Source: an uncultured virus (IMG/VR IMGVR_UViG_3300030103_005599) (lineage: Duplodnaviria > Heunggongvirae > Uroviricota > Caudoviricetes). From it: 64,000 bases of DNA. Shown piece after piece: positions 23,327 through 54,243 of this stretch (position 1 is its first letter; each line of letters begins with the position of its first letter). Position numbers and translations under genes: made by a program. The notes beneath the pieces are model-generated. The model searched no databases. It saw only the letters and a list, made by a program, of their open reading frames with translations, and was not told the origin of the DNA. The stretch lies in the IMG/VR virus record IMGVR_UViG_3300030103_005599; one strand, 5' to 3'.

Positions 23327-26300
23327 TTATTCAGGTGCATTTGTAGGCTCATCCGCTATGAATTTAGCCTGTGCAGTAGTTGATCCTTGTAATCCCTTGC
23401 CGTCGCCAGGATTACCATCAGCCGCTGTTGTCCATACCTGTCCTCTCTTGTGTAGTATTTTGATCTGTTCAGCGTCAGCAGGTGCTGTTGTGAATGTCAC
23501 AGCAGTTGTGCTTCCGTCCACAGAATAGTTGATTGTTGAACCGTCCTCGCTAGTGAGCAACACTCGTTGGCCACCAATGAATATGTCTAACTCACTAGCA
23601 GAAGCCGGTGTTTGTGATAAAGTGAACACTGCCGTGCTACCATCACCCGTAAAGGTATTGGTATGTACTGTGTCCACATAAGGTATGGTTTGAGTTCCAG
23701 ATGCGTCTACCACTTCTGCACCTGATCCATGCTCCTTAATTCCTGTTCCAAGAGTACCACGCTGTAATTGTCCCAACGTGTTACCTGATTTGGTAAAATA
23801 TTCTATTCTTTCTTTGCCTATAAACACCACACCTGGCGTCCTGTCACTGATCGTGCTTCCGTCAGTTGATATAGTGAATCCAGGTTCTGCAAGTTTTGTG
23901 CCATCTGCCACAGTAATTGTTGTGTCTGTGGTTTGCAGTGTCTCGGTCAATATTGTAGTGTGTGTTTTAGATATTCTTCTATAAAAAGTTCTGTTCAACA
24001 TATCCTTGAATATTCTGTATCCAATTGAATCTGTTGCCGATTGCAATGCAAAGAACATCACATCTAGTCTGTCACTTGTTGTAATAGTCTTGCCATGGAC
24101 TGTAATTTTTGGTCCATCCAACGCAAAGTTGAACGCAAAGTCAACATTCTGCGTAAGTTGAATTCCGTTCAACCAAACATACATGTAAGTTGAATTCAAC
24201 GGCTCGTCATGCAAGAAGAATTCTCCATTTGGTCTGCCTTCTAATACTTCCCTACGATATTTCATGCCAAGTGCATTATTAAAAGTTGTAACTCTCATAG
24301 TGCCTGACTTGTTGAAGCCGTCTGTATGCATTTGTGCCGTGTCTAATACCAACACAGGTGAACTAGGCTGATTGTCTATCTGGTAGTGTTTGTCAACTAA
24401 AGTTGTTATTGCAACAATGTCGCCTGGATTTGCAGGTGCGTTTGTACTTACAGTTTGTGCGGCCAGGTCAACAGTGTAGTTGCCGTTTGGTAAGGCACCT
24501 TCAGATAATTTTCTACCGTTGTAGTGAACTTCTATTTGGTTTGTGTTTGTAATAATTTTCGCAGGGTCAACTGTTGAACCATCGCTCAATGAAGATGCAA
24601 CACCGTAGGTGTATGTGCTTCCGTCGCCTTTGTAATAAGTTGTGTCAGGTCCTCTCAAAACTTTGCCATCAAGTTCGATTATGCACAAACCGTGCATTGG
24701 TGTAATAGACCCTGGCGGGAACGTCAATGCATAATTGGTAGTTGACTCATCATAAGTGAAGTCTTCTGATCTGATCTGTGCCACACTCCTTGTGGTACTT
24801 GAACTTTGGAATCCTGCAATCTGTATAAACTGTCCCGACGTCGGTGCTGTTGTAAAAGTAACAATAGCAGTATTGCCAATTATTGTTGTAGATCCATCTG
24901 CGTGTTCAGGATCTGTATATGTTATTGTGAGGTCCGTAGTAGGCACACCATCTACTGTCACATAGATCTCAGAGTTAGTGGAATCTATATTGAAGTCTTG
25001 TCTTGCCGATGTTGTGTACACAGTTGTAGAACCGTCACCTGTGAATGTGTCCAGCACTCTGTAATTTACACCAGATATTGCAAAAACTTTTGTTGATACT
25101 AAAGCACCGCTTCCTGGTGCAGTTGTAAATGTAATTGTTTTTGCACCTACATCAATTGTGTAATCCTCTACTGTTGACCCATCTATCTGTGCTTTTTTAG
25201 TCACTCCATCTACTGAGACTTTGACCGACGCCAACGTTCCAGGATGATCACCCAATGCAAATGTTGTTGTGCTACCATCGCCATGATAATTTCTGTCAGT
25301 GATCAAAGGCACACCACTTTCAGGTGCAGTATAAACCTTTATGTCCACTGTGTCAAATATTTGTCCCGGCACAACTTCTTCAGGTGCGTAACTTGTTGTG
25401 GATGAAACAAAAGCATCTCCGTCAACGTTAATGTCACTTGGTGCTGTACCCAATGCACTGCCATACAATCCGTTCTTGGTGAACAAACCACCTTTGATAA
25501 TGCTGTCTAAAGTTCTATCATCAGTAGGCGTCAACACACCATCGTCGTCTGCAGGTATGAATTCTATCAAAGCATTCTCGTTTGGTGTTGCGCCAGTCAA
25601 GGTGTAAGTTGCCTCACTGCCTGTTCCAATAAATGTATCTGAAAGTTTTGTACGTTCATCACTTTCTGTCTTATAAACATGATATACCACTGACGTTTCG
25701 CCTGCGAAAGTAAATGCTTTTGTAGTACCGTCGGCGTAAAATGCTCTTACCCTAGATACTCCATAGTTGTCCCATGGATAGTCGTACCATGCAGATTCAT
25801 CCCAGCCTTGACTCTGTTTGAAAAGTAGTCCCGTTACCATCGTGCCACCATAGTCAACTCCTGACATGACCTGTGACAACTCATTGCCTGGCATGCCATC
25901 TGTTGGTGTGTAGAATCCTTTTATCCTATCAGCCGCTGTTAATCCTGTCTCGTCGCCGTAATATTTTGTCACTGCACCTTCGTTGTCATCAAAGTCTGTA
26001 GTAGATGTAAACTCGTTCACTGCTTTGTATAATTCATTCTGGTATCTAATTTTAGCGCCATACTTGTAAGTTGTGTTGGCCGCCCAGTCAACCACAGTCG
26101 ATGTGCTTGTTATCCTGTCAAATTTTATAGTTGTATCAAAATCCCTGACAAGGTCATTGTCCAGGTTTGCGTAGGCTTTTGCGGCATCACTTGGTGCCGT
26201 GCCATCGTTCATACCGCCAGTAAGCGTCACAGTTGGTGTGGATGTATAACCAAAACCTATACCTGTCAATGTGATAGAAGTGACCACTCCTCCAGTGATA

Positions 26301-29300
26301 GTAGCAGTGGCAGTGGCCTGTGTGGTTGCACCTCCGCCGCTGATTGTGACTGTTGGTGCTGTCTCGTAACCAGAGCCACCTGCAAACACTGTGATTGATT
26401 TCACGTGTTTAGTGTAATAATCGTACCACAATTGCCATGGATACGTTGTGCGTTTTGCTGTGTCGTATGTTGGGTTAAACTTACGTATCTTGCCAGTCGT
26501 CTCGTCATAGAATGGTGGATTGTCAAAATCAGTGATAACACCATCGTGTTGTTCTGGTGCATAGTAACCCAATTTGTAATTCCTTAATTTTGTATGGAAA
26601 GGTTTTACTTCATTTATGTAACTTTCTATCCAAGTGTCAGTGCCTTTTGTATATGTTTTTCTGGTATCCAATGATCGGACACTGTTAACAGCAGTTATGA
26701 AACTAGTCTTGAACATCCAATCCACATAAGTCTGTTCCTCAAGAACTTTTCTTAAACCCACAAAGAACAGATTGTTGTATTCGATAGACAGATCGCCTTT
26801 GAAGAAATCTTCTTTCAATGCTTTCAATACTTGTCTAGTTTCTTGGTTGGGCTCTTGGTCAAAAGTGTTGTCATCAAAATTATCCTCGCCTGCGAATCCT
26901 GTTGCGTCCTGGCTGTAATCATATAATTTTGTGCTTAATTTGAAAGTTCCATTTTCTGTTCCAACGTTTGTCCAACCTGTACTTGTTTTCATGAACAGTT
27001 TCCATCCGCCTGTGTCGGCGTTTGTCACTTTGACATGCTTACCTACAGCAAGGTCAAGTGCGTCTAGTTCGTATTCAAAAGTTACCTGTTTATCGATAGG
27101 AGTATTTTCACTATGGATCATCTCATGGATAGCAGGATCAGTGCCGTACCAGTCTGTGTAACTCCAATATTTCGAAGTATTGTAAGTTTGAATTTTTGTT
27201 CTATTAAACTGTGTGCCATCCCATTGGTATATCGCCCATAAGTCATTGGCAGTCTCGTCTGCTTTGACCAGATAGTTTACCGAGCCCGATATATCAGCAG
27301 TATTGATGTAAGTTAGGTCTGCGTATGTGTCGACAGATGCGTCCCACTCTCCACTCTCTACTGTAGGCTCAGGGTCTTCACTGTTCAAATTATCGAGGCT
27401 GACTTGTCCTGCCAATTGCGTTTTCTTTATTACGCTGTTAGCGTAGTCAATAATTTCTTTCAGTGCTTCAAGCCTGTCAACGTACCAACTTTGTCTTGGT
27501 CTAATGCTGTTTCCATACCTGTTGTATATAGGTAAATTGACATCAGGCACAACATCACCTGCACTGTTTTGTCCGCACAATGAATCCCACCACTTGGTTT
27601 CGATTTCGGCATTAGGCCTCCAATCCTTATCGCCCTCTCTTGCAAGTTTCCATACGCTGTGTGCATCTCCCTCGAAGTCATTCTTCCTTATGTCAATATT
27701 CAAAACGACATCAGAATTAATTAATGGAGATAATTTATTAATCATTATTTTATTAGTATCTGTTGCCGCATACCATTGCACTGCACCAGATCTAGGATTA
27801 GAAATTAGATTGGCAACATAACCTGTAGTATTTTTCCTATGAACCACGCTGTTTCTCGGTAGCGTGTTTTTGTTTTTTACCCAATAATAATAAACATCAA
27901 CCAAAGCGTCCAACCTGGAGTCATACCTTTGTGCCACACTGTATTGTAGGTTTGCTATTCCTGATATACTATTATTGTTGCCGGTTTCCGAACCAACTAG
28001 GCCATTCCAATCTTCAGGCAAAAGGCTAGATTCTGTCCATTCATACACATCAACGCTTGAGCCAGGAAATAATTTACCCCAGTTGTTGACTTTGTATTGC
28101 TGATCGTCTTGCTCGTACCAGATATATTTTATTTTTGTTAGATCCCACCATACTTCCCCTATATGATCTTCAAGCCAAGGTGTTTTAATATTGCTTTGAT
28201 CTCCTGTGTTGTAAGTGGCAGGATCCCAAGGTGATCTGTAATTTATTTCTCTATCTGCCTGTCCAAGTATTCTGCCTTTTATTGGATCATAAAGATCGTA
28301 GTAATTTCCTATTTGTTTTGTACCGTTATTGAAGTCAAATACCTGTCCTAATTTTTCAATGTCGATAAAGTTTGTTTCTGTTGTTAAATTTTTCCAAGCA
28401 TACTCTCCGTCTGTGTTACAATCGTACTGATGTACTGTTCCGTCATTAGTTAGATCAGGATTGCCTTCATCGTTCGGAGAACCAATAAAGAGATTGTTGG
28501 CAGACATGCTGACGCCTCTTCCAAAATCGTCAAACGAGGACACTTTTGTTGATACTAACCTATCGTCTAACACATACTGTGAATTGTATATTGTAGCAGT
28601 ATAAACAGCACCCGAACCTTCGTTTGTGTCCACAATCCTTGTGTCTTGTAAATCAAAAGTTGTTTCTCCTGAATCGAATTTCATTTCTCTAGGGTTTGCA
28701 GATTTTTCGGCGCCAATTGCTAACCTTGTTCCGTCTTGTGTCAACGACACACTTGATCCAAATCTTACGTTGTCTAGTTTATCAGGAGCATTAATTGTTT
28801 GTTGTAGCGTATATGTGTTAGTAGAACCATCCGCGTTCCATTTGTATGTGTAAACTGCTCCTGCGTCCACTTGTACGTCGTCAACTCCTGTTGCACCAAT
28901 TATAAGTGTTGTTCCGTCTTTGCTCATAGCAATTGACTCACCAAATGCAGTGTTCAGCGTTGAACCATCTGATGTAACTCCTGTCAATGTTTGCACATGC
29001 GTAAATGTGTTTTGTGTGCTGTCACCGTCTGAAGCACCTTGCCTAACAAATATTTCTACTTTTCCAGCGTTGCCAGGTGCTATTGAACTCACTGCCAATA
29101 TATCACCATTATCATTTGTTTCAAGCCTGTGTCCAAATCTCTGAGCCGACCCGCCCGCTGGCGACATTATCGATGCGTCCTGCGTCCAAGTATCATAAGT
29201 TGATCCATCAGCACCTATTCCCCATGTGTACATATAAACCACACCTGTGTCATTTGAATGTCCAGGGGCAGAAACAAACAAGTATTTCCTTGCTGTGCTT

Positions 29301-32300
29301 CTTGTTGATGCATCGGTCGGTTCGGCAATCTTGTGCGACCAACCAAAATTTAAATTTTCATTTTCAGTCGAACCATCAGTTGGTGGTGTCAACGTGTTTA
29401 GTATTCCATATTGATATCTGTCAGGATTCCATACGTACACCTTGATCAGTCCTGCATCTATCTGCCGTGTACTGCCGTCATTGTCCAGTGTGTTTGTATA
29501 TGGTGCACCAGCAACAACAAAGTTTTCATCTGTGCTTATTGATAATGACTCTCCCAATCTGCTTGTATTGTCATCGTTCTCTGTCATTGTTGCAGTTGCC
29601 TGCGTCGAAAAAGATGTCCCTGCGTTGTGTGACGTCCTGAATAGGAAGTGTACTTCTCCTTGCCCTTTGCCAGGTGCCGATACAACAACTGTCCTACCAT
29701 CGTTCCTAGCCACAACACGATATCCAAACTCTTGGTTACTTGTGGTAGTGTTTGGCGAATTGATAATTTTTTCAGTATATGGATCCTGTTTTTCGTAAAC
29801 ACGCCACAAACCAGATGTGTCAGCATCTGCAAATACCTTATCGCCGGGAATTTCAAGTGTGTCGTTTTTATCCTTATATTCTGAATATGCCAGCCTGTCA
29901 TTTACATTGTCCATCGAATTGATTCTTACTGAAATAAATTTGTAAATGTTGCCGTAACTGTCTGCCGTCGAACCATCTGCTAATGTAGGAATAAAAGTTG
30001 TATCGTCGTCGTATTCCACCAACACACTATCGTGGGTAGGAACACTAGCAACACGGTAGACTCTGTTTAATGTTGTGCTTTCACTATTTGTTATTGCAAA
30101 ATAGTCCGCGGTTGTTGTGGCACTGCCAGCGGTCAGTCCATGTGAATCTGTAAATTTAATTAACATCTGTGTGTTATTGATGTTTGGTTGTAACGAGTCA
30201 ATCTTAAATCCTGAAAACGTCATTCTAAGCACGTCCCAGTCTGCATTTTCTTTGCTGGCTACCCAAATAAGATCATTTCTTGATACTGACTCAACATCAA
30301 GTGACAACAGATCCTGAATGTAAAATGCTGTATGTTGCACTTGTTGGACCTGAGGATAACCTGCTGTCTTGTAAATCTGCACATTGTCCCTGTCTTTGCC
30401 TGGTTGTGTGAAGTCATAACGCTTGAAAGTGTCTGACGCTGTATATTCTAACGGTTTGTAGTAAAAATTATCCTTGAACACTCCTACCGATCTCACATAA
30501 TCTTTTGAAAAACTTTCTGTGTCAAAAAATTCTAAACTTAAAGGGTCTGTGTTGATAGTTTTGTCGTCTAAGGTAACTTGTATATTTTCTATACTGTCAA
30601 GGTTACCAAATTGTCCTGTTCTTATCATCCAGTCTGGATAAAAATTTAAAGTAATATCTGAGTTTTCATACTTGGCTTTAAGAATTTTGTCTATTGCACT
30701 CTGTGTGCCTTTCTCTCTAATGTAGCCTTGATAGAATTTGTATTGCGAAACATCATTTACAAATAAGTTTTCTAGGTAGTCCCTGCTCTGATAACCTATT
30801 AATCTTTGTGCAAGTTGCTGTTGAGATTCATCAAAATTATTTGTCTCAAGATTATAGAAGTCATTAAACTGTGCAATCTTGTATTCGAAGTTAGGAATAA
30901 GTTGCGGCGCCGGTTTGTCATTTTTAAGCACCCAATTATCGCTAATAAACTTATCGCCTGCATTATGATTGACGGACGCAACATAAAACTTACCTTGATA
31001 TTCAACTGCGTCGCCTATTCTGTAATCTGTATTTGCGATCCAGTATGTAACTTGCGCCGCATCAAATACAAACCCAGGTGCATAATAATCGCCATCCCAG
31101 TTACCTGTCTTCCAACCAACCACTTTTAATCTTTGTTGCCTGAACCCTGTAAATGGATCATATATCACATCGGAGAACACTGTGTTGTTATCAAATATTA
31201 GAATATGTTCTTTCTGAACAGTGTTTAATTCGATGTTATATAAACCAATATCTGCCGACTTCATTGTAAGATCAAAAGTTTTTCCTAAACGTTTTGTGCT
31301 TATCTCTCTGATGTCAATTTTTCTTCCGCCTGCATCAACAATGCTATAATCTCCTGCCAGGTTCCTCAACTTGCCAACAATGCTGTTGTTGGTGTCTAAT
31401 TCAAATCCGTCCGCGGCAGGTGAAACTGTTATTGCCGATCCAGGTGCCCATTCCTGTGTGGTCCAGAATAAAAACTCTCTAACAGCATTTGTCCAGTTTA
31501 ATGTTTCTTTTATCTCTTTTGAAAATTTATTAAATTTAAAGCCTTCTGATTCTAGATAATTTCCGTATCCCAACAAGAAATCTGCAACGTCTTGTACAGT
31601 AGTGAAAACATATCCATATGGAATAGTCTGTACTGTTTCTTGATAATTTGTGAATTGATCTACCCCAACCGAACCTTCAACTTTCAAAGAAGATTTGGTC
31701 GATGTTTTTACTGGATAATTGAAGTTGAAAAATGGTTTTGTTGTTGAATATCCTAAAACTTTAAACCCACCAAGTAGTGACGACCCGTCAAGTGATGTAT
31801 CAGTATTTTTTTCTATCAACACACCAGAATACTGAAAACTTTCAACTGGGTTTGATGTCCTAAAGTTTATTTTATAGTTTTCGTCCGGTATAAATTTTGA
31901 TCCTGCTGTTGAACCCGGCGAAACAGAATCAGTCAAAACTTTAATATTATCCTTGTCTGTAAAACCTCCCAGTTTGTAAACCAATTGAATATCAAGATTC
32001 TTCATCTTGTCGTAATAGAATGCCTTAGGATCCAACCCTTTGCCTGTCAAATAATTTACTACAAAAACTTGATATCCTGCTGTCATAAATCTCGTAGTGA
32101 CTCCTGTCGTTACGTCTGTTTCTGTTTCTAAATGATATTTGGCTTTATTAAGATTAAATCTTATTCCAGTATCGGATGATATTTTGTTACCTGCCGAGTT
32201 TATAGATAATCGAGATACGTCAAATAGGTTCTCAAAGAATTTTGCAGGTTTTGTAATAGCCAAAGTTTTTAAAACACTGAACGGATATGCACTAGAACGC

Positions 32301-35300
32301 CTCCAGGCAGTCTCCGCTGGTGCATGATCACCAAACTTCCATGGTAGTCCCCTGCCAGGAATGTCAAAGAAATTAACAATACCGATAGCCAGTGGATCTA
32401 ATAGGTTACCAGATGCGTCTACAGGAAGGTATGTCCTTACGTCAGGCTTGCCGTATCTACCCTGATGAGATGCAATGTCATTCCATAAGACATCGTTCCC
32501 AGCAGTGTACGGTGCCGCACCATACGTTGCCTCCCAAGTGCTTGGCTTCTCTGAATGACCCAACATCTCCCACGGTGTCAAATGTGGTGTATCTGTGTCA
32601 TAGAAAAATTTGTAAATGGCACGCCAGTAACCAGGTAGGTTTTGTCCTGTCACCCTGTCCGTTGATAGCGAATAGTTGTATGTGAAAGGAGATCCTTCCG
32701 AAAACGCTGTATTGTTTATGTATTGAACTTTGTTCCTGCCTGCCCATACATAAAAATCAGCGGCCATTGTGTCGTCAACTTGTTTACGTGTATACTCTGT
32801 TGATGTAAACACACTTGGCATCACATCTCCCCATGCAAGGTTTGTACTGTCGTATGCTGTCTTACAGTTGTTGTATATTCTTTTTTCCAATTCTAAAATA
32901 AGATCATCGCGTTCGTCGCCATAGGCCTTGATAATAGAACCGTCGTGTCTTCTTATGACATTTGTAGATGTGGTATAACTGTCATCGGTGTATGACTCAG
33001 GCTTAAACTTAGGATAGATTCCTAATTTTGTCGGAGTTGGAGGAACATAACTTCCTGTTGTGTCAGCGTAATCCTTAATTACTATTTTGTCACCCACGGT
33101 CAGTGCTTTTGAAATATTAATGCTATCATCTGTTGTGCTGAATGTATATTCTGAACCCAACACCAACTGCACATCATTAAGATATACGTAGACTGCTCTA
33201 TTGCTTAATTTTGTGATATCGTGCAAAGAATCAATCGCGTAATCCTTTTGCGATGTTCCCTGGACAGTGTAACTTCTTGTAGACACGTTCTGCCCATATC
33301 CAATCATGTCCTCATAAAAGAAAGGAAACTTACTGTTTTTGCCTACCGATATTGTTTCAATAATTTCGTCAACCCTGTCTCTGGCAACTCCTTCATAAGC
33401 AGTGCCAACTGCATTTGTAAGGAAACTATTGTACCATTGTTCGTATTGTAGGTTTACATAATCTATTGCTGTTAGTACATTGGTTTCTTGATCTGTTAGA
33501 CCAAATATTGCCGGTACAATAGATGCTTCGTGTTGCTGAATAGATCCGCCTAACAACCTTGCATCTGGTTTGTCTCGCAAATTTGACTGCCCTGGTATTG
33601 ATCCTGTAACCGCACTGTTTTTGTCTAGTATATCTTTTACATGATTAACAATTTGTCCAAAAGTAAATTCATTAGTTGCTGTGTTCAAACCGTTTACTGA
33701 AAGATTTTCAGGTACTTCGTATATTCCTTTGTTGGCGACTTTGTCAGCACTGCTATGGCCCGCGATCCTTATTTGATCATCAACCTTAAGTTCTGCGTTA
33801 AACTTTACGTACTTGTTGGTACTGCCATCTACTAGTGTGTAGTCAGTTGTTACAGTCTTCCTTGCGCCGTTAACCTGTACGGAAATATCTAGATCTGTTA
33901 GGCTGGCAGAATTTTTGAAAAAATCTATAGGAAAAAGTTGTTTTTCAGTTGCGTCTACTATAAAAGTCCTTATCACCCTTTGTTTACTAGATGCAGATCT
34001 TTTGATCCATGCACTACGAGAATTGTGTGTTGTCCTACTTGTAGTGTAATGTAAATGACCTTCTGCTAAATTTTTTGTAATTGTTTTTTTACCTGTCTTG
34101 TATGTAAAAGTACCCGACGTGTGATCTGACTCAAAAACAATATCTCCAACATTGTTAATTGTTCTATATTTGACTTTGATGCCCAGCACGGTATCCTCCG
34201 TGGCACTGTCAGAAGTTGCAAATGATAAAACTTTTGCCCCCGCGAAAGTCGAATTGGGATAAGTCGTTGCGTCATCAAAAGATACATGGTCATTGTCCCA
34301 CATACCAAAAAGAGGTTGCTGATTTAATTTTGTTTTAGATTGAGCAGTCTTCCATACTTTGTTTGTATCGTCGTAATAATAATTCTTGCCTTTACCTAGT
34401 GTGCCTTGTTTGACATAAATGTTTTCATTATCGCCGACAATGTTGGTCTCTACCAATGCAATCACTTGCGTTGAATCTCCTGCTGTAACAAAATTTACAG
34501 TGTAAATCCTATTTTTTACTGCGATATCTGTGTCCGCGGAAAAAACTACCCTCATTCCTTGTGTAAGTTCAACACCGTCTATAAAATAACCTGTTGCTCT
34601 AGGAACTACACTCAAAGCATCAGTAATAGTTGTGTCAAATAGATCGACAGGATCCTTTGCAACTGTTCCATGATTGTATAAAGCCAATCCAGAATCAAAT
34701 TCTATAATGGGTCTTTTTGCTCGATCATTCTCATCAAGCACTTTTGGAGTGCCATTAACGGTAGCCGCTTTGTCAATATTATCTCTATGGAACCACCTGT
34801 TGTAACGTGACCAAGGGTTTTGATCTCTGCTGTCCCTTTTGATTGTAATGTAATCTTTATCTTTCGGCGTTCCGTCATCGGAATACGATTCTGGTGTTAC
34901 TAAAGATGTGACATCTGTCAATGATATAGCATCACCTACACCTTCTACATAATATTCTTTGTTTTTATATGCACTTGCAACCAGATCGGTTTTAAATTTT
35001 ATCTTCATACCGTTTGATAGGGCAAGTGTTCTAAGGCTGTAATTTTTTACACCTACGATGTCATCTTCTACCTCAATCTGTGAATTAGAAGCAACAGTCT
35101 TGATATTCAGCACCCCGTACATGTTTTCATGACTGCTACATTGATAGTATAACGTATTAGGGGCATCTGTTGGAACAACAAATGTTAGTGTACCTTTTTG
35201 CACACCGTTGTTTGTGACACCTTCGTTGTAATGTACCGATGTTGATCCGTCCGCGGCTATCCCGCCTGATATTGGCTCGGACATTATGTAGAAAGGATGT

Positions 35301-35974
35301 CCTGTTTCACTTTTTGTAAATTTGTATGTGTTTCCTCTATAAAGCGTAATTTCTGGATTACGTAAATTTTCCTTATGTGGGAAACTGTATGCTCTGCCTG
35401 TGGTTCCGTCGTCCGCCAGTGCTTCTACTTTGAATTCAACTTCTGCTCCTGTCCCAACTGAATCTATTTCTATAGCACTTGGTCCATCCGACACCCAATA
35501 GTATTCCCTGTAATTAACAAGTTTGTCATAATCAACTGCTGGGTTCCACGAGTATGCAGTTTCTTTGTTTAATCTGTCATGGTTGTCAACATTGGCTCCA
35601 AAATATTTAAGTTGATTGATATAGTCATCATATGTGCCAGTGAACTTAACTTGGTCTTCTGGATTGATAGATGTTGTATCGTTATCAATATAGGTTACTG
35701 CAGGTTCCAGTTGATATGCAAATCTATCTCTACTGGTTGCACCAAGATACCTATCTGTGACCTCCCTTGTGTAGGCGTCCTGCCGTCCGATAAATCCGTC
35801 TAATCTCTCTAGAGATCCTTTTTGTATTAGAGAATCTAAAGTGCTAGACAAGAAACGTTGGTTGGTATCTGTCCTGTAGAATGCCGGAAGGTGTTGTACT
35901 GATCTTCTGTACTCGTTGTCACCTTGTTTTACAACTTCCTGATTTGCTTGTGAATTGATTGGTGTGTCAGCCAT
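23327..35974 (-). CDS. Giant baseplate wedge/structural protein (gp7-like position), 4215 aa
   Basis: Follows gp6; YIREKGT and [11 protein letters not shown] wedge-like motifs; FG-GAP-like repeats; GGSGY..APTVTI repeats; GDGST..F repeats. Confidence 0.7.
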
Positions 35975-50705: not shown

Positions 50706-50894
50706 ATGTCACAAACACATGAACAGATCATGACAGAAATACAAACTTATTCAGAAGAAAATGGAAAGTTCGTAGACAAGGGCGTAAAGGCTTCTGCAAC
50801 AAGAGCCAGAAAAGCACTTGCTAATCTTTCAAAATTGATCAAAGCAAGAAGAAAAGAAATTCAAGAAGTTAAAAACGCGGCAAAAACTGCGTAA
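50706..50894 (+). CDS. Small basic histone H1-like (Hc1-type) protein
   Basis: KGVKASATRARKAL..L.KLIK.RRKEIQ. Confidence 0.7.
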   Translation: MSQTHEQIMTEIQTYSEENGKFVDKGVKASATRARKALANLSKLIKARRKEIQEVKNAAKTA

Positions 50895-51535: not shown

Positions 51536-52596
51536 TTGTATTCCTTTTCTAATCCGACCGGGCGTGTTGGAAAGTAATCTTGTTTTCCACCAAGTCTACG
51601 CACATCTGTGCTCATGCAATGGAATCCGGCGTCCCAAAATCCTCTGGTTGGGTGATCAATTAGGTGAGGTGTGATTCCTTCCTTGTGCAGTATTTCTAAT
51701 ATTGTATCATCCTCACAAAAACATATAACGTTTTTTTCGTCTATAACCAAACAGTTTACGTCAAATATAGTTTCGGTAGAATCTCCTGTCCAATGTCTCA
51801 CCTTGTCCATTATGTGTTTGTTAAACACAGGAGAGTGATAAAAATTATCAGGAATCCACCATTTATGGAACTCCGGCATCACTTTGGATTTCTTTGCATT
51901 TTCTAATCTTTGTATTGTAACATCGGGTAACCAATGCACACGCCACCCAGGGAACGTTTGGTCGTATATTTCCTTCTCTCCGTAGTGTGTTGATATTATC
52001 ACTCCCTCCTTTACCGGACAGAATACACCGTCTGCGTGTCCCCCAAAGTGTAGTAAATGCCTCCTATACCCTTCTCCTAAATTTTTAAATCCTTCTGTGC
52101 AATTTCTTAATTGCCTTGGAGAATTTTGCTCGAGGGCGACATCGTAGTACAGATCATGCCCCATCCTGACGACCTCTCCATACCCTACCCAAGCATACGG
52201 TTTGCTACGGTCTACCATGTGTACGTTCTCACCTTTGCTTTGATATTCTTCTATGACCTTTTTGTATGGATTGATCTTCCACCCATGGTCCAAGAAATAA
52301 AGTGTGTCAGAAAGGCACATAGCAAAGTCTCGAGGAGACATGGGAGGTTTTATCAGCATGTCATTCTTGTCTCTGTAATTGCTGGAATCTGTGTCGAACT
52401 CGGGTTTCCGCACAATGACATTATGGTCAACAAGCACCTTTTCCATCTTGGATAGTGTTGCCATTGTGTCCTCTGTTAGCCTATGAAAACATTCTTGCAG
52501 TTGTGTGTCGAGGTTGTCATAGAATCCAACGGGATATGGTGATCCCAACCACACCTCTTGTAGAGGTTGAAAATCTGTATGGCAATCAATTATCAT
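51532..52596 (-). CDS. Amidinotransferase-family protein
   Basis: FQPLQEVWLG, PRD, GHADG, FDVN.LVID, WDAGFHCMS.D..R. Confidence 0.8.
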   Translation of the reverse strand: MIIDCHTDFQPLQEVWLGSPYPVGFYDNLDTQLQECFHRLTEDTMATLSKMEKVLVDHNVIVRKPEFDTDSSNYRDKNDMLIKPPMSPRDFAMCLSDTLYFLDHGWKINPYKKVIEEYQSKGENVHMVDRSKPYAWVGYGEVVRMGHDLYYDVALEQNSPRQLRNCTEGFKNLGEGYRRHLLHFGGHADGVFCPVKEGVIISTHYGEKEIYDQTFPGWRVHWLPDVTIQRLENAKKSKVMPEFHKWWIPDNFYHSPVFNKHIMDKVRHWTGDSTETIFDVNCLVIDEKNVICFCEDDTILEILHKEGITPHLIDHPTRGFWDAGFHCMSTDVRRLGGKQDYFPTRPVGLEKEYK

Positions 52597-52994
52597 TTTA
52601 AGATTCCTTTGCCATGTACACGCACCCTGATATGACCATTGTAATAATCGTTCGACTCAAGGACTTTTCTAGCAAACTGTTCCCTAGCCTCAATGTAGGA
52701 CAGTTGAGCCTTTGACCTACAGTAGAATAATATTTCACGAGTAAATTTTTCTTTTCCTAATTTTAAAATATCCAATGTCAGTTCGTCACTTGATCCATAA
52801 TATTCACGCCAGTCAGAATCTACACTGAACCGTCTCTTGTTTTTCCTGCCCTTTAAAGGAGGCCTGCTACGCTTGAAACGTGCCAACTTCTTTCCTATGT
52901 ACATCCTACCATTAGTTGTATTTGTGATTTGGTAAACAAAACCTACAACTCCTTCTGGTAATTCATCAACTTCTTTTTGCTCGTAAATCCACAT
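52593..52994 (-). CDS. Small GIY-YIG nuclease
   Basis: GFVYQITN..NGRMYIGKK, YYGSS, F.REIL, E...Q, YYN; ATG at 52994. Confidence 0.75.
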   Translation of the reverse strand: MWIYEQKEVDELPEGVVGFVYQITNTTNGRMYIGKKLARFKRSRPPLKGRKNKRRFSVDSDWREYYGSSDELTLDILKLGKEKFTREILFYCRSKAQLSYIEAREQFARKVLESNDYYNGHIRVRVHGKGILK

Positions 52995-53049
52995 TGCCAA
53001 TATTTAAAGCCAAAAAGATTGACCTTAAAATAAAACTCATATAAACAAG

Positions 53050-53455
53050 TGCGATAGGCACACAAACAACTCTTAAAAAATCTCAAAGGCAAACATAGCA
53101 TCCATGAAGTGAGCACGGAAATGCGGCAGAAATGCGACAGGTGAATCCGTTGATGCAAATGGCAAAAATGATCGGGGCTCTGAGAAAAAGCAACCCCAGG
53201 TCTATCATAGATTATTATACAAAGATATGATAGGCTCGCGTTGGATGAATAAGCGAATGGGTACAGCACAACCGCCCAGTTAAGACAGCATTGTATGATG
53301 ACTGCGAACTCACCACAGGGTTCAAGTCGGTTCGGCTAGAAATAGCCGAATTGTGACTGCTCATCTACCACAGGGGACGCAAAATTACGCGAAGCGTAAT
53401 TAAAAAAATAAACGAGCGTAAGCGAAGTTTCAGATGGCGTAAGCCGGCTGTTGAA
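53050..53455 (+). ncRNA. Putative structured non-coding RNA and/or replication-origin element
   Basis: No credible ORF in an otherwise gap-free genome; several stems with G-U pairs on the + strand, GAAA/GTAA loops, 22-nt direct repeat. Confidence 0.5.
53299..53375 (+). repeat. Imperfect 22-nt direct repeat pair TGACTGC-N6-ACCACAGGG
   Basis: TGACTGCGAACTCACCACAGGG 53299-53320 and TGACTGCTCATCTACCACAGGG 53354-53375. Confidence 0.75.
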
Positions 53456-53475
53456 TCTCATTAAGTATTAACACC

Positions 53476-54243
53476 ATGCAGATGCTATTCGACCACACGT
53501 TCGGCAAACAGGAACAACAGGACCTTGTTGTGGCCAAACCCATGTGCATATTCGAACCGGACGAGGAACAGGGTGCCATAGATCACGGATGGCTGGCGCT
53601 GGACGAGCCGGTGCACGGCAAGGAGGTGTTCTACCAATCACGTGTGACCCGGATAAACATGCGGAAATACCGTCCCAGGTTCCGTGAACACAAACTCAAC
53701 GGCAAACAGATACAGTACAAGATAATCGAGGCCTCCGACATGGTGAGGCTGTTGGGACTGCCGCACATATACGAACGATACATGAAACGCAAAAAATTTG
53801 GCGCGGACTACACACCGTTCCGTCACCATCATGCACGTGACAGGTTCATGGTGTTCTACACCGGCACCGCTGACAACATAGTGGGTTTCACCAAACAGAA
53901 GTTGTACAGCGCCGAGGACCAGGACTACCAACAGATCGGCGATCCGCACGTGGAGTACTCGGGAGTGGAGAGTTGCATACACGCCAACATAGCACCCATA
54001 GGCGCAATGACGCTGGACCTCGAACTGCAATGGGCCAGGGAAAACTACGTGCCGTTCTACTACCTGGGTTCCGGCTACGAGCGGTCGTCGGAGTACAAGG
54101 CGTCGTGGCGTGGATTCGAATGGTGGACGGGAGTGGAGTGGACCAACAATCGCAGGATGTACAAGCGACTGTGCAGGCGAGATTCCAAACTGACTACGTT
54201 TTCCGAGCTCGGAAACCTTTCACTGATTCCAGATAAGAACTAG
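53476..54243 (+). CDS. Arginyl-tRNA-protein transferase (ATE/Bpt)-like protein
   Basis: A...GW near the N-terminus; C-terminal G...L..EL.WA......YYLG.GY...S.YK..W.GFE. Confidence 0.55.
   Translation: MQMLFDHTFGKQEQQDLVVAKPMCIFEPDEEQGAIDHGWLALDEPVHGKEVFYQSRVTRINMRKYRPRFREHKLNGKQIQYKIIEASDMVRLLGLPHIYERYMKRKKFGADYTPFRHHHARDRFMVFYTGTADNIVGFTKQKLYSAEDQDYQQIGDPHVEYSGVESCIHANIAPIGAMTLDLELQWARENYVPFYYLGSGYERSSEYKASWRGFEWWTGVEWTNNRRMYKRLCRRDSKLTTFSELGNLSLIPDKN

Follow-up and report, generated by a model that had tools for sequence, protein, structure and literature searches.

A conserved structured RNA with matched direct repeats in T4-related jumbo phages, a candidate primer at a replication origin

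Analysis of a 64,000-nt stretch of DNA from an uncultured tailed virus (the window) confirmed that positions 53050-53375 on the plus strand form a structured RNA. It lies in a 475-nt gap between a 133-aa SegE-type GIY-YIG nuclease gene (minus strand) and a 255-aa ORF. An earlier note on this gap had offered two readings, a partner RNA of the nuclease or a replication-primer RNA, and the second is the one that fits best. Going by its anatomy and its relatives, we lean somewhat towards a ColE1-RNA-II-like primer that would be anchored on its own template strand and followed by a single-strand initiation signal. The RNA family and its fold are uncatalogued, and we found no published description of the family in the literature, where supplementary lists of candidate motifs could hold fragments of it. 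The features discussed below are as follows.

52593..52994 (-): stand-alone SegE-type GIY-YIG nuclease gene, 133 aa (PF19835, E 8e-36)
53001..53006 (-): TAAATA, conserved in close relatives, immediately before the nuclease gene
53019..53047 (+): probable promoter of the RNA, TTGACC...TATAAACA, with TTGAC kept in most close relatives
53050..53097 (+): A/C-rich 5' leader with AGGCA motifs at 53056 and 53087
53098..53156 (+): subtype-variable 5' domain (P1, nested stems), with covariation at 53116-53149 and 53117-53148
53174..53299 (+): conserved double-pseudoknot core, comprising P2 (53174-97), P3 (53199-236), P4 (53258-61/53275-78), P5 (53279-86), PK1 (53214-21/53292-99), and PK2 (53239-43/53269-74, with a bulged C)
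53308..53320 (+): direct repeat X1, ACTC followed by ACCACAGGG at 53312-20, the proposed self-targeting segment
53325..53358 (+): P6 hairpin with a GNRA loop, between the repeats (98.8% paired, 5/11 pairs compensatory)
53363..53375 (+): direct repeat X2, ATCT followed by ACCACAGGG at 53367-75, the probable 3' end of the RNA
53376..53450 (+): ssDNA-type hairpins, proposed to signal primosome or primase loading when the strand is displaced, with a c(GAA)g triloop stem at about 53391, a tandem-GA mini-hairpin at 53414-25, and a hairpin at 53431-50

The window is a portion of a T4-related phage, with gp47/gp46-type nucleases, a baseplate hub, and a portal around the gap. Its portal is nearest to those of Atu_ph07, PA5oct, XaC1, and GAP32. 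A jumbo genome is implied, as the nearest relative record, at 65.7 kb, is rated 18% complete. Several neighbors deserve mention in their own right. The 255-aa ORF (53476-54243, +) has no Pfam, PHROG, or NCBIfam match and is absent beside the RNA in several close relatives. Immediately after the gp46 region, a 62-aa histone H1-like Hc1 protein is encoded at 50706-50894 (+; PF07432, E 3e-12), and a 4215-aa ORF occupies 23327-35974 (-) within the tail/baseplate block. The TAAATA hexamer also precedes the EndoVII genes of GAP32 and XaC1; we take it to be a possible T4-type late promoter.

Every stem quoted in the earlier note is present where it was placed, including GCATC 53098/GATGC 53152, ACGGA 53115/TCCGT 53146, GGGGCT at 53174, the helix 53199/53226, and the hairpin at 53325-53358, as are TTGACC at 53019 and TATAAACA at 53040. 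The note overlooked two pseudoknots, the direct repeats, and the ssDNA-type character of the last ~75 nt. The promoter that it suggested is plausible from its conservation and was absent from the output of a consensus scan; copies of the element in cultured phages have clear sigma-70-type promoter boxes. Folding of the single sequence beats shuffled controls modestly (z -2.7 for the plus strand and -2.1 for the minus strand), so the case for an RNA rests on relatives. These were gathered with a 17-nt motif search that returned at least 120 viral stretches; 8 chance-like matches in unrelated sequence were removed before alignment. Regions upstream of GIY-YIG relatives align across the whole gap, even where the downstream gene differs. 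A structure of nine helices fits the 32 distinct homologues that share the window's subtype, with 99.1% of 1626 cells paired; since the structure was derived from the same 32 sequences, it is the compensatory counts that carry the weight, and both sides change in 31 of the 51 pairs. None of 500 shuffles matched the structure-alignment result, and slid controls were 32-43% paired. The preference for the plus strand, argued before from G-U pairs, is borne out by 149 G-U/U-G cells vs 4 A-C/C-A cells. PK1, in which the P3 loop takes part, is compensatory in 6/8 pairs; PK2 is invariant in the window's subtype and compensatory across subtypes. The AGGC[AT] motif of the leader recurs upstream of X1 at a density of 4.1 per 520 nt, vs 0.84 in the flanks (59 elements). 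RNAalifold gave no consensus on the mixed 3'-module alignment A3, a failure that we attribute to hairpin arms being out of register.

The RNA is about 320 nt long here, and the versions in cultured relatives measure 450-620 nt. Searching the window and the homologues against Rfam gave no relevant match, either at gathering score or at E-value level. The earlier note did not recognise the element as a tRNA, tmRNA, or intron. ARAGORN and Rfam called 0 tRNA or tmRNA genes in the window, no Rfam group I or II intron model matched, and the element is intergenic and interrupts no gene. An Rfam match to RNase P was likewise absent, and no covariance model of GOLLD, ROOL, OLE, or another Rfam family matched at gathering score. 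Resemblances to an HDV-like ribozyme and to group II domain V were set aside, since the motifs concerned do not persist from subtype to subtype.

The feature that most shapes our reading is the pair of direct repeats. With anchors chosen blind to the repeat (ACTC, the hairpin, TGAC, and ATCT), X1 equals X2 at positions 1-6 in 74/74 distinct elements and at position 7 in 91%, a count that leaves outside it the subtypes lacking the anchors, some of which match less well. Between elements, identity of X is 44-61% at positions 1-5, and position 6 is invariant. There are 19 different X pairs, with repeats of 6-10 nt spaced 47-62 nt apart. Paralogues within one genome (G002, GAP32, XaC1, and RaK2) can differ in X, yet the pair agrees within each copy. 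Exceptions occur among the cultured phages. In PBECO4, the base preceding the shared repeat core is mismatched in 4/4 copies; in PA5oct, a clear repeat is missing from 2/3 copies, and one copy failed a scripted pseudoknot test. A complement of X at a fixed place inside the RNA was found in 12/54 elements, no better than the 19% of the control. Because the only perfect complement of X that is always available is the locus's own template strand, we infer RNA-DNA pairing in cis.

A cis-acting ribozyme or RNA-guided processing element could use the same repeats. Its pseudoknot core would cleave or transesterify at X1/X2 with the template strand as a splint, and the outcome might be formation of the RNA's own 3' end, a hairpin circle of ~55 nt, or a nick in the displaced strand; such activity may overlap with an origin. 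Near-invariant unpaired nucleotides in the core and a bulged C adjoining PK2, both kept across subtypes, would suit catalysis, and two successive docking steps would need identical repeats. We nevertheless hold this reading unlikely, as an internal guide complementary to X was not found and neither an Rfam ribozyme nor an Rfam intron model matched.

Past X2 the character of the sequence changes. Across 63 elements, the RNA body holds 44 GNRA tetraloops and 0 cGNAg triloops, and the 160 nt after X2 hold 23 cGNAg triloops. A tandem-GA mini-hairpin follows X2 in 58/63 elements, compared with 5 in shuffles and 11 matches on the minus strand, and compensatory pairs occur in the tail at 53412-28 and 53437-44. 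GNA triloops and tandem-GA hairpins are stable in DNA. The tail looks like ssDNA hairpins rather than RNA, and X2 is probably both the 3' end of the RNA and an RNA-to-DNA transition. The strict tandem-GA motif lies near only some of the copies in cultured phages. The 6.6-kb ColE1 record has a single occurrence, at 1332, a position that we place downstream of the origin, within the primosome-assembly region and on the strand with the sense of RNA II.

These parts can be put together as an origin of replication that is primed by transcription, in jumbo phages of the RaK2/GAP32/PA5oct type. The folded core would present X1, which, while RNA polymerase passes, would base-pair in cis with the template strand beneath X2, leaving a persistent R-loop. 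Leading-strand synthesis could then be primed by the end of the RNA at X2 or by an end made through cutting at X1, and the displaced plus strand would bare the GNA-loop and tandem-GA hairpins for helicase/primase loading. The neighboring GIY-YIG gene would be one of three interchangeable branched-DNA nucleases rather than the dedicated partner of the RNA.

The family extends from uncultured aquatic phages to the cultured jumbo phages GAP32, XaC1, PBECO4, RaK2, and PA5oct. Searching cultured phages with the window element by blastn gave chance matches only, and the cultured members were reached through synteny, by way of a 0.7-1 kb gap that holds the same core at the same syntenic place. More distant phages have diverged versions immediately downstream of their GIY-YIG gene. 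A search with the GAP32 copy matched 72 phage records and no plasmid. Copy numbers per genome are 5 in GAP32, 5 in XaC1, 4 in PBECO4, 3 (plus 1 weak) in RaK2, 3 in PA5oct, and 2 in G002, and no second copy was found in the window or in the record G001. Within each genome the copies are co-oriented, including all five cultured genomes. GAP32's five copies are evenly spaced (P 0.005); outside GAP32, in phages that are related to one another, even spacing is weak (minimum-gap P 0.05-0.19), and spacing is significant on both measures in GAP32 and PBECO4 only. Models R1 and R2 did not detect the RNA in Atu_ph07 or Melnitz, a soft absence given that the same models miss known members (R1 misses PA5oct; R2 misses PA5oct and RaK2).

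Outside phage genomes, a copy was found in 2/5426 E. coli genomes. The one examined is part of a small integrative island located at ffs, the gene for SRP RNA, and possibly a satellite of jumbo phages. This island (L309:7753-18300) has an integrase interrupted by IS3 and a DUF4326/DUF488/dual-OB cassette, and upstream of the RNA it has a zinc-finger-like ORF of 303 aa. In a pattern scan of GTDB, the architecture of the repeats was present in 8/24 matches, of which 6 lay on contigs with phage portal, gp46, or hub genes and 2 on contigs of ~2 kb; the remaining 16 were chance-like. Element-bearing phage contigs L290, L294, L296, L297, L301, and L303 were binned into MAGs of unrelated taxa, so they give no host assignment. 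A second subtype (L047:3420-3900, L063, L074, and L247) has ACATGAA as its X and a P4 loop that is expanded by a large insertion, and G002 carries both subtypes.

A transcript is documented for a homologue in PA5oct. The copy at 246.1 kb of PA5oct, a paralogue of the syntenic copy, is ncRNA004, and it carries the P2 motif, the PK2/P4 core, the hairpin, and the repeat. Table 1 of PMC7318152 gives ncRNA004 as a plus-strand RNA of 619 nt that makes up 0.08/0.03/0.02% of phage reads, highest early. Having been annotated from RNA-seq, this homologue supports the earlier proposal of a plus-strand phage ncRNA. Its 3' end is annotated at 246734, where its X2 has its final base, in what is one hand-annotated case. 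Metatranscriptome contigs from 4/4 marine runs lie on the window's element; such contigs reveal neither the strand nor the ends nor the level of a transcript, they may reflect carried-over DNA, and one run spans the flanking genes. One contig stops at 53373, and two, from two runs, extend past X2.

Spread and abundance also bear on two other readings. A trans-acting scaffold or decoy of the GOLLD/ROOL type, in which X1 and X2 would be paired sites bound by a protein of the phage or the host, would account for a large, ornate fold in several copies per genome and for the presence of one copy alongside defence-like genes in a bacterial island. We judge it distinctly unlikely, as the single copy measured, PA5oct ncRNA004, is rare in the cell, X varies among the copies of one genome, and the DNA-type hairpins right after X2 would be left unexplained. 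Still further from probable is a mobile RNA element of the selfish kind, or an RNA that serves as template for DRT2- or telomerase-like reverse transcription with repeat jumping, where X1/X2 would be the repeats used for realignment. The multiple copies, the place in an integrative island, and the fixed ~55-nt unit flanked by repeats invite that idea. Against it, the main copy holds one syntenic place from the window to the cultured phages, and X falls into few classes rather than resembling arbitrary flank. No RVT_1 match was found in 5/5 genomes (the control rang in 4/14), in a search that could miss very divergent reverse transcriptases and that met G001 at 18% completeness; the reverse transcriptase gene that accompanies an RT-ncRNA (retron, DRT2, or UG27) in its locus or genome was thus not seen.

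The nuclease next door calls for separate treatment. It is a protein of 133 aa, the length given in the earlier note, read from the ATG at 52994. Its structural model (pLDDT 89) has a basic beta-hairpin insert, and its best fold match is the I-TevI catalytic domain (Z 8.8, rmsd 2.6, 82 aligned), with Slx1 at Z 3.1. There was no sequence relative in the PDB, and Foldseek gave no match with E under 0.001. PHROG 447 and many GenBank records call the cyanophage-type GIY-YIG family "NAD synthetase", whereas its fold is that of a nuclease domain. By profile search, the RNA lies within 1.8 kb of a GIY-YIG gene in 47/50 well-covered loci (at least 1.4 kb on both flanks) and in 60/80 overall, and the 60 matches are 29 divergent and 31 tandem. 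This proximity in both orientations, together with the basic insert, is what speaks for the RNA being a guide or cofactor of the nuclease beside it, in an RNP that would nick at X2. The idea of a dedicated partner is weakened by what happens elsewhere: linkage is tight within this clade, but nucleases swap outside it, and three unrelated folds alternate in the slot. A RusA-like resolvase fills it in PA5oct and in 7/13 of the environmental loci examined that have no GIY-YIG gene, and EndoVII does so in GAP32, XaC1, UE-S1, and PBECO4. PF19835 was absent from 5/5 RNA-bearing genomes tested (the positive control rang in 3/5), 4/5 RNA copies of GAP32 have no annotated nuclease gene directly beside them, and Melnitz, L032, and L079 have the nuclease without detectable RNA. 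OMEGA-type systems tie their RNA obligately to a single nuclease family, an arrangement not seen here, and we regard a nuclease guide as improbable. From the sharing of the slot, the GIY-YIG protein is probably a branched-DNA or Holliday-junction nuclease of the gp47-gp46 recombination module. The same swaps suggest that the cyanophage-type small GIY-YIG protein acts as a resolvase.

Comparison with known systems helps to place the candidate origin. ColE1 RNA II shares with it the order of a promoter, a long folded RNA, and a short repeat between the body and the 3' region, followed by a tandem-GA mini-hairpin on the RNA-sense strand, where ColE1 has the n'-pas/ssiA primosome assembly site. 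In ColE1 the repeat is made of G-runs, visible in its sequence, whose role was reportedly described by Masukata and Tomizawa in 1990. Passages of PMC3640518 describe the same order of parts and events. The phage RNA differs in being pseudoknotted, in having a mixed, co-varying 6-10-mer as its repeat, and in occurring in several copies on a chromosome. Core model R1 gave no match to ColE1, and the phage RNA is ColE1-like in anatomy only, not a member of the RNA II family. R-loop origins of phage T4 consist of a promoter and an unwinding element, and their transcripts are not known to depend on conserved folding, on a pair of matched repeats, or on hairpins further downstream. They resemble the present case in that these are T4-related phages, in the presence of several origins per genome, and in a transcript believed to stay on the template. 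GOLLD and ROOL are likewise large, pseudoknotted, phage-associated non-coding RNAs, whereas the RNA described here has no Rfam match, is scarce where measured, and has matched repeats and a DNA-type tail. The ssDNA nuclease Ssn, with its NTS/SRM repeats, offers another likeness in a small single-domain GIY-YIG gene beside hairpins. In the window, the protein is of the PF19835 SegE type and replaceable, no repeat copies were found bracketing its gene, and its neighbor is an RNA-type fold with G-U pairs.

Weighing the origin as a whole, we counted in its favor the X1/X2 rule, the switch of loop type at X2, the ColE1 motif, co-orientation, the spacing in GAP32, the low-level, early-peaking, X2-ending ncRNA004, and the copy in the E. 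coli island. GAP32 also encodes an annotated RNase H. On the other side stand the PBECO4 mismatches, the repeat losses in PA5oct, the contigs that read through X2, the weak spacing outside GAP32, and the lack of a detectable copy in Atu_ph07. Moreover, an X match of 6-10 bp is short for a stable hybrid, and co-orientation may just reflect the main direction of transcription. Fourfold-degenerate skew did not differ between plus- and minus-strand genes in the window, GAP32, or XaC1 and did so in PA5oct for T-A only, leaving 4/5 regions, including the element-free control Atu_ph07, without a signal. No compositional trace of one-way replication is therefore seen; GC/AT skew in the window follows the gene strand.

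The portions of reviews that we drew on do not state how RaK2/GAP32/PA5oct-type jumbo phages initiate replication of their DNA, and the RNA family provides precise, mutable origin candidates in cultured phages of laboratory strains of E. coli and P. aeruginosa. It also unites an RNA-seq feature that had stood alone, gaps left unannotated in the genomes of dozens of cultured phages, and an element that is widespread among aquatic phages. A bolder extension, which we put forward tentatively and consider doubtful, is a class of self-targeting origin RNAs, pseudoknotted and possibly catalytic. In such a class, a reprogrammable 6-10 nt segment would find its own locus by pairing, make a primer end, and start replication at several sites of the jumbo-phage chromosome, and small bacterial islands would carry a copy for the infecting phage to replicate.

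In the relevant passages of PMC7318152, ncRNA004 appears as a transcribed ORF-free region, without structure, family, or function, and the present analysis differs in those respects. Two further RNAs of PA5oct, ncRNA001 (L232:464-699) and ncRNA002 (L233:652-1102), matched neither Rfam nor the probes of this RNA family. Both are given there as highly expressed, at up to 5% of phage reads (PMC7318152).
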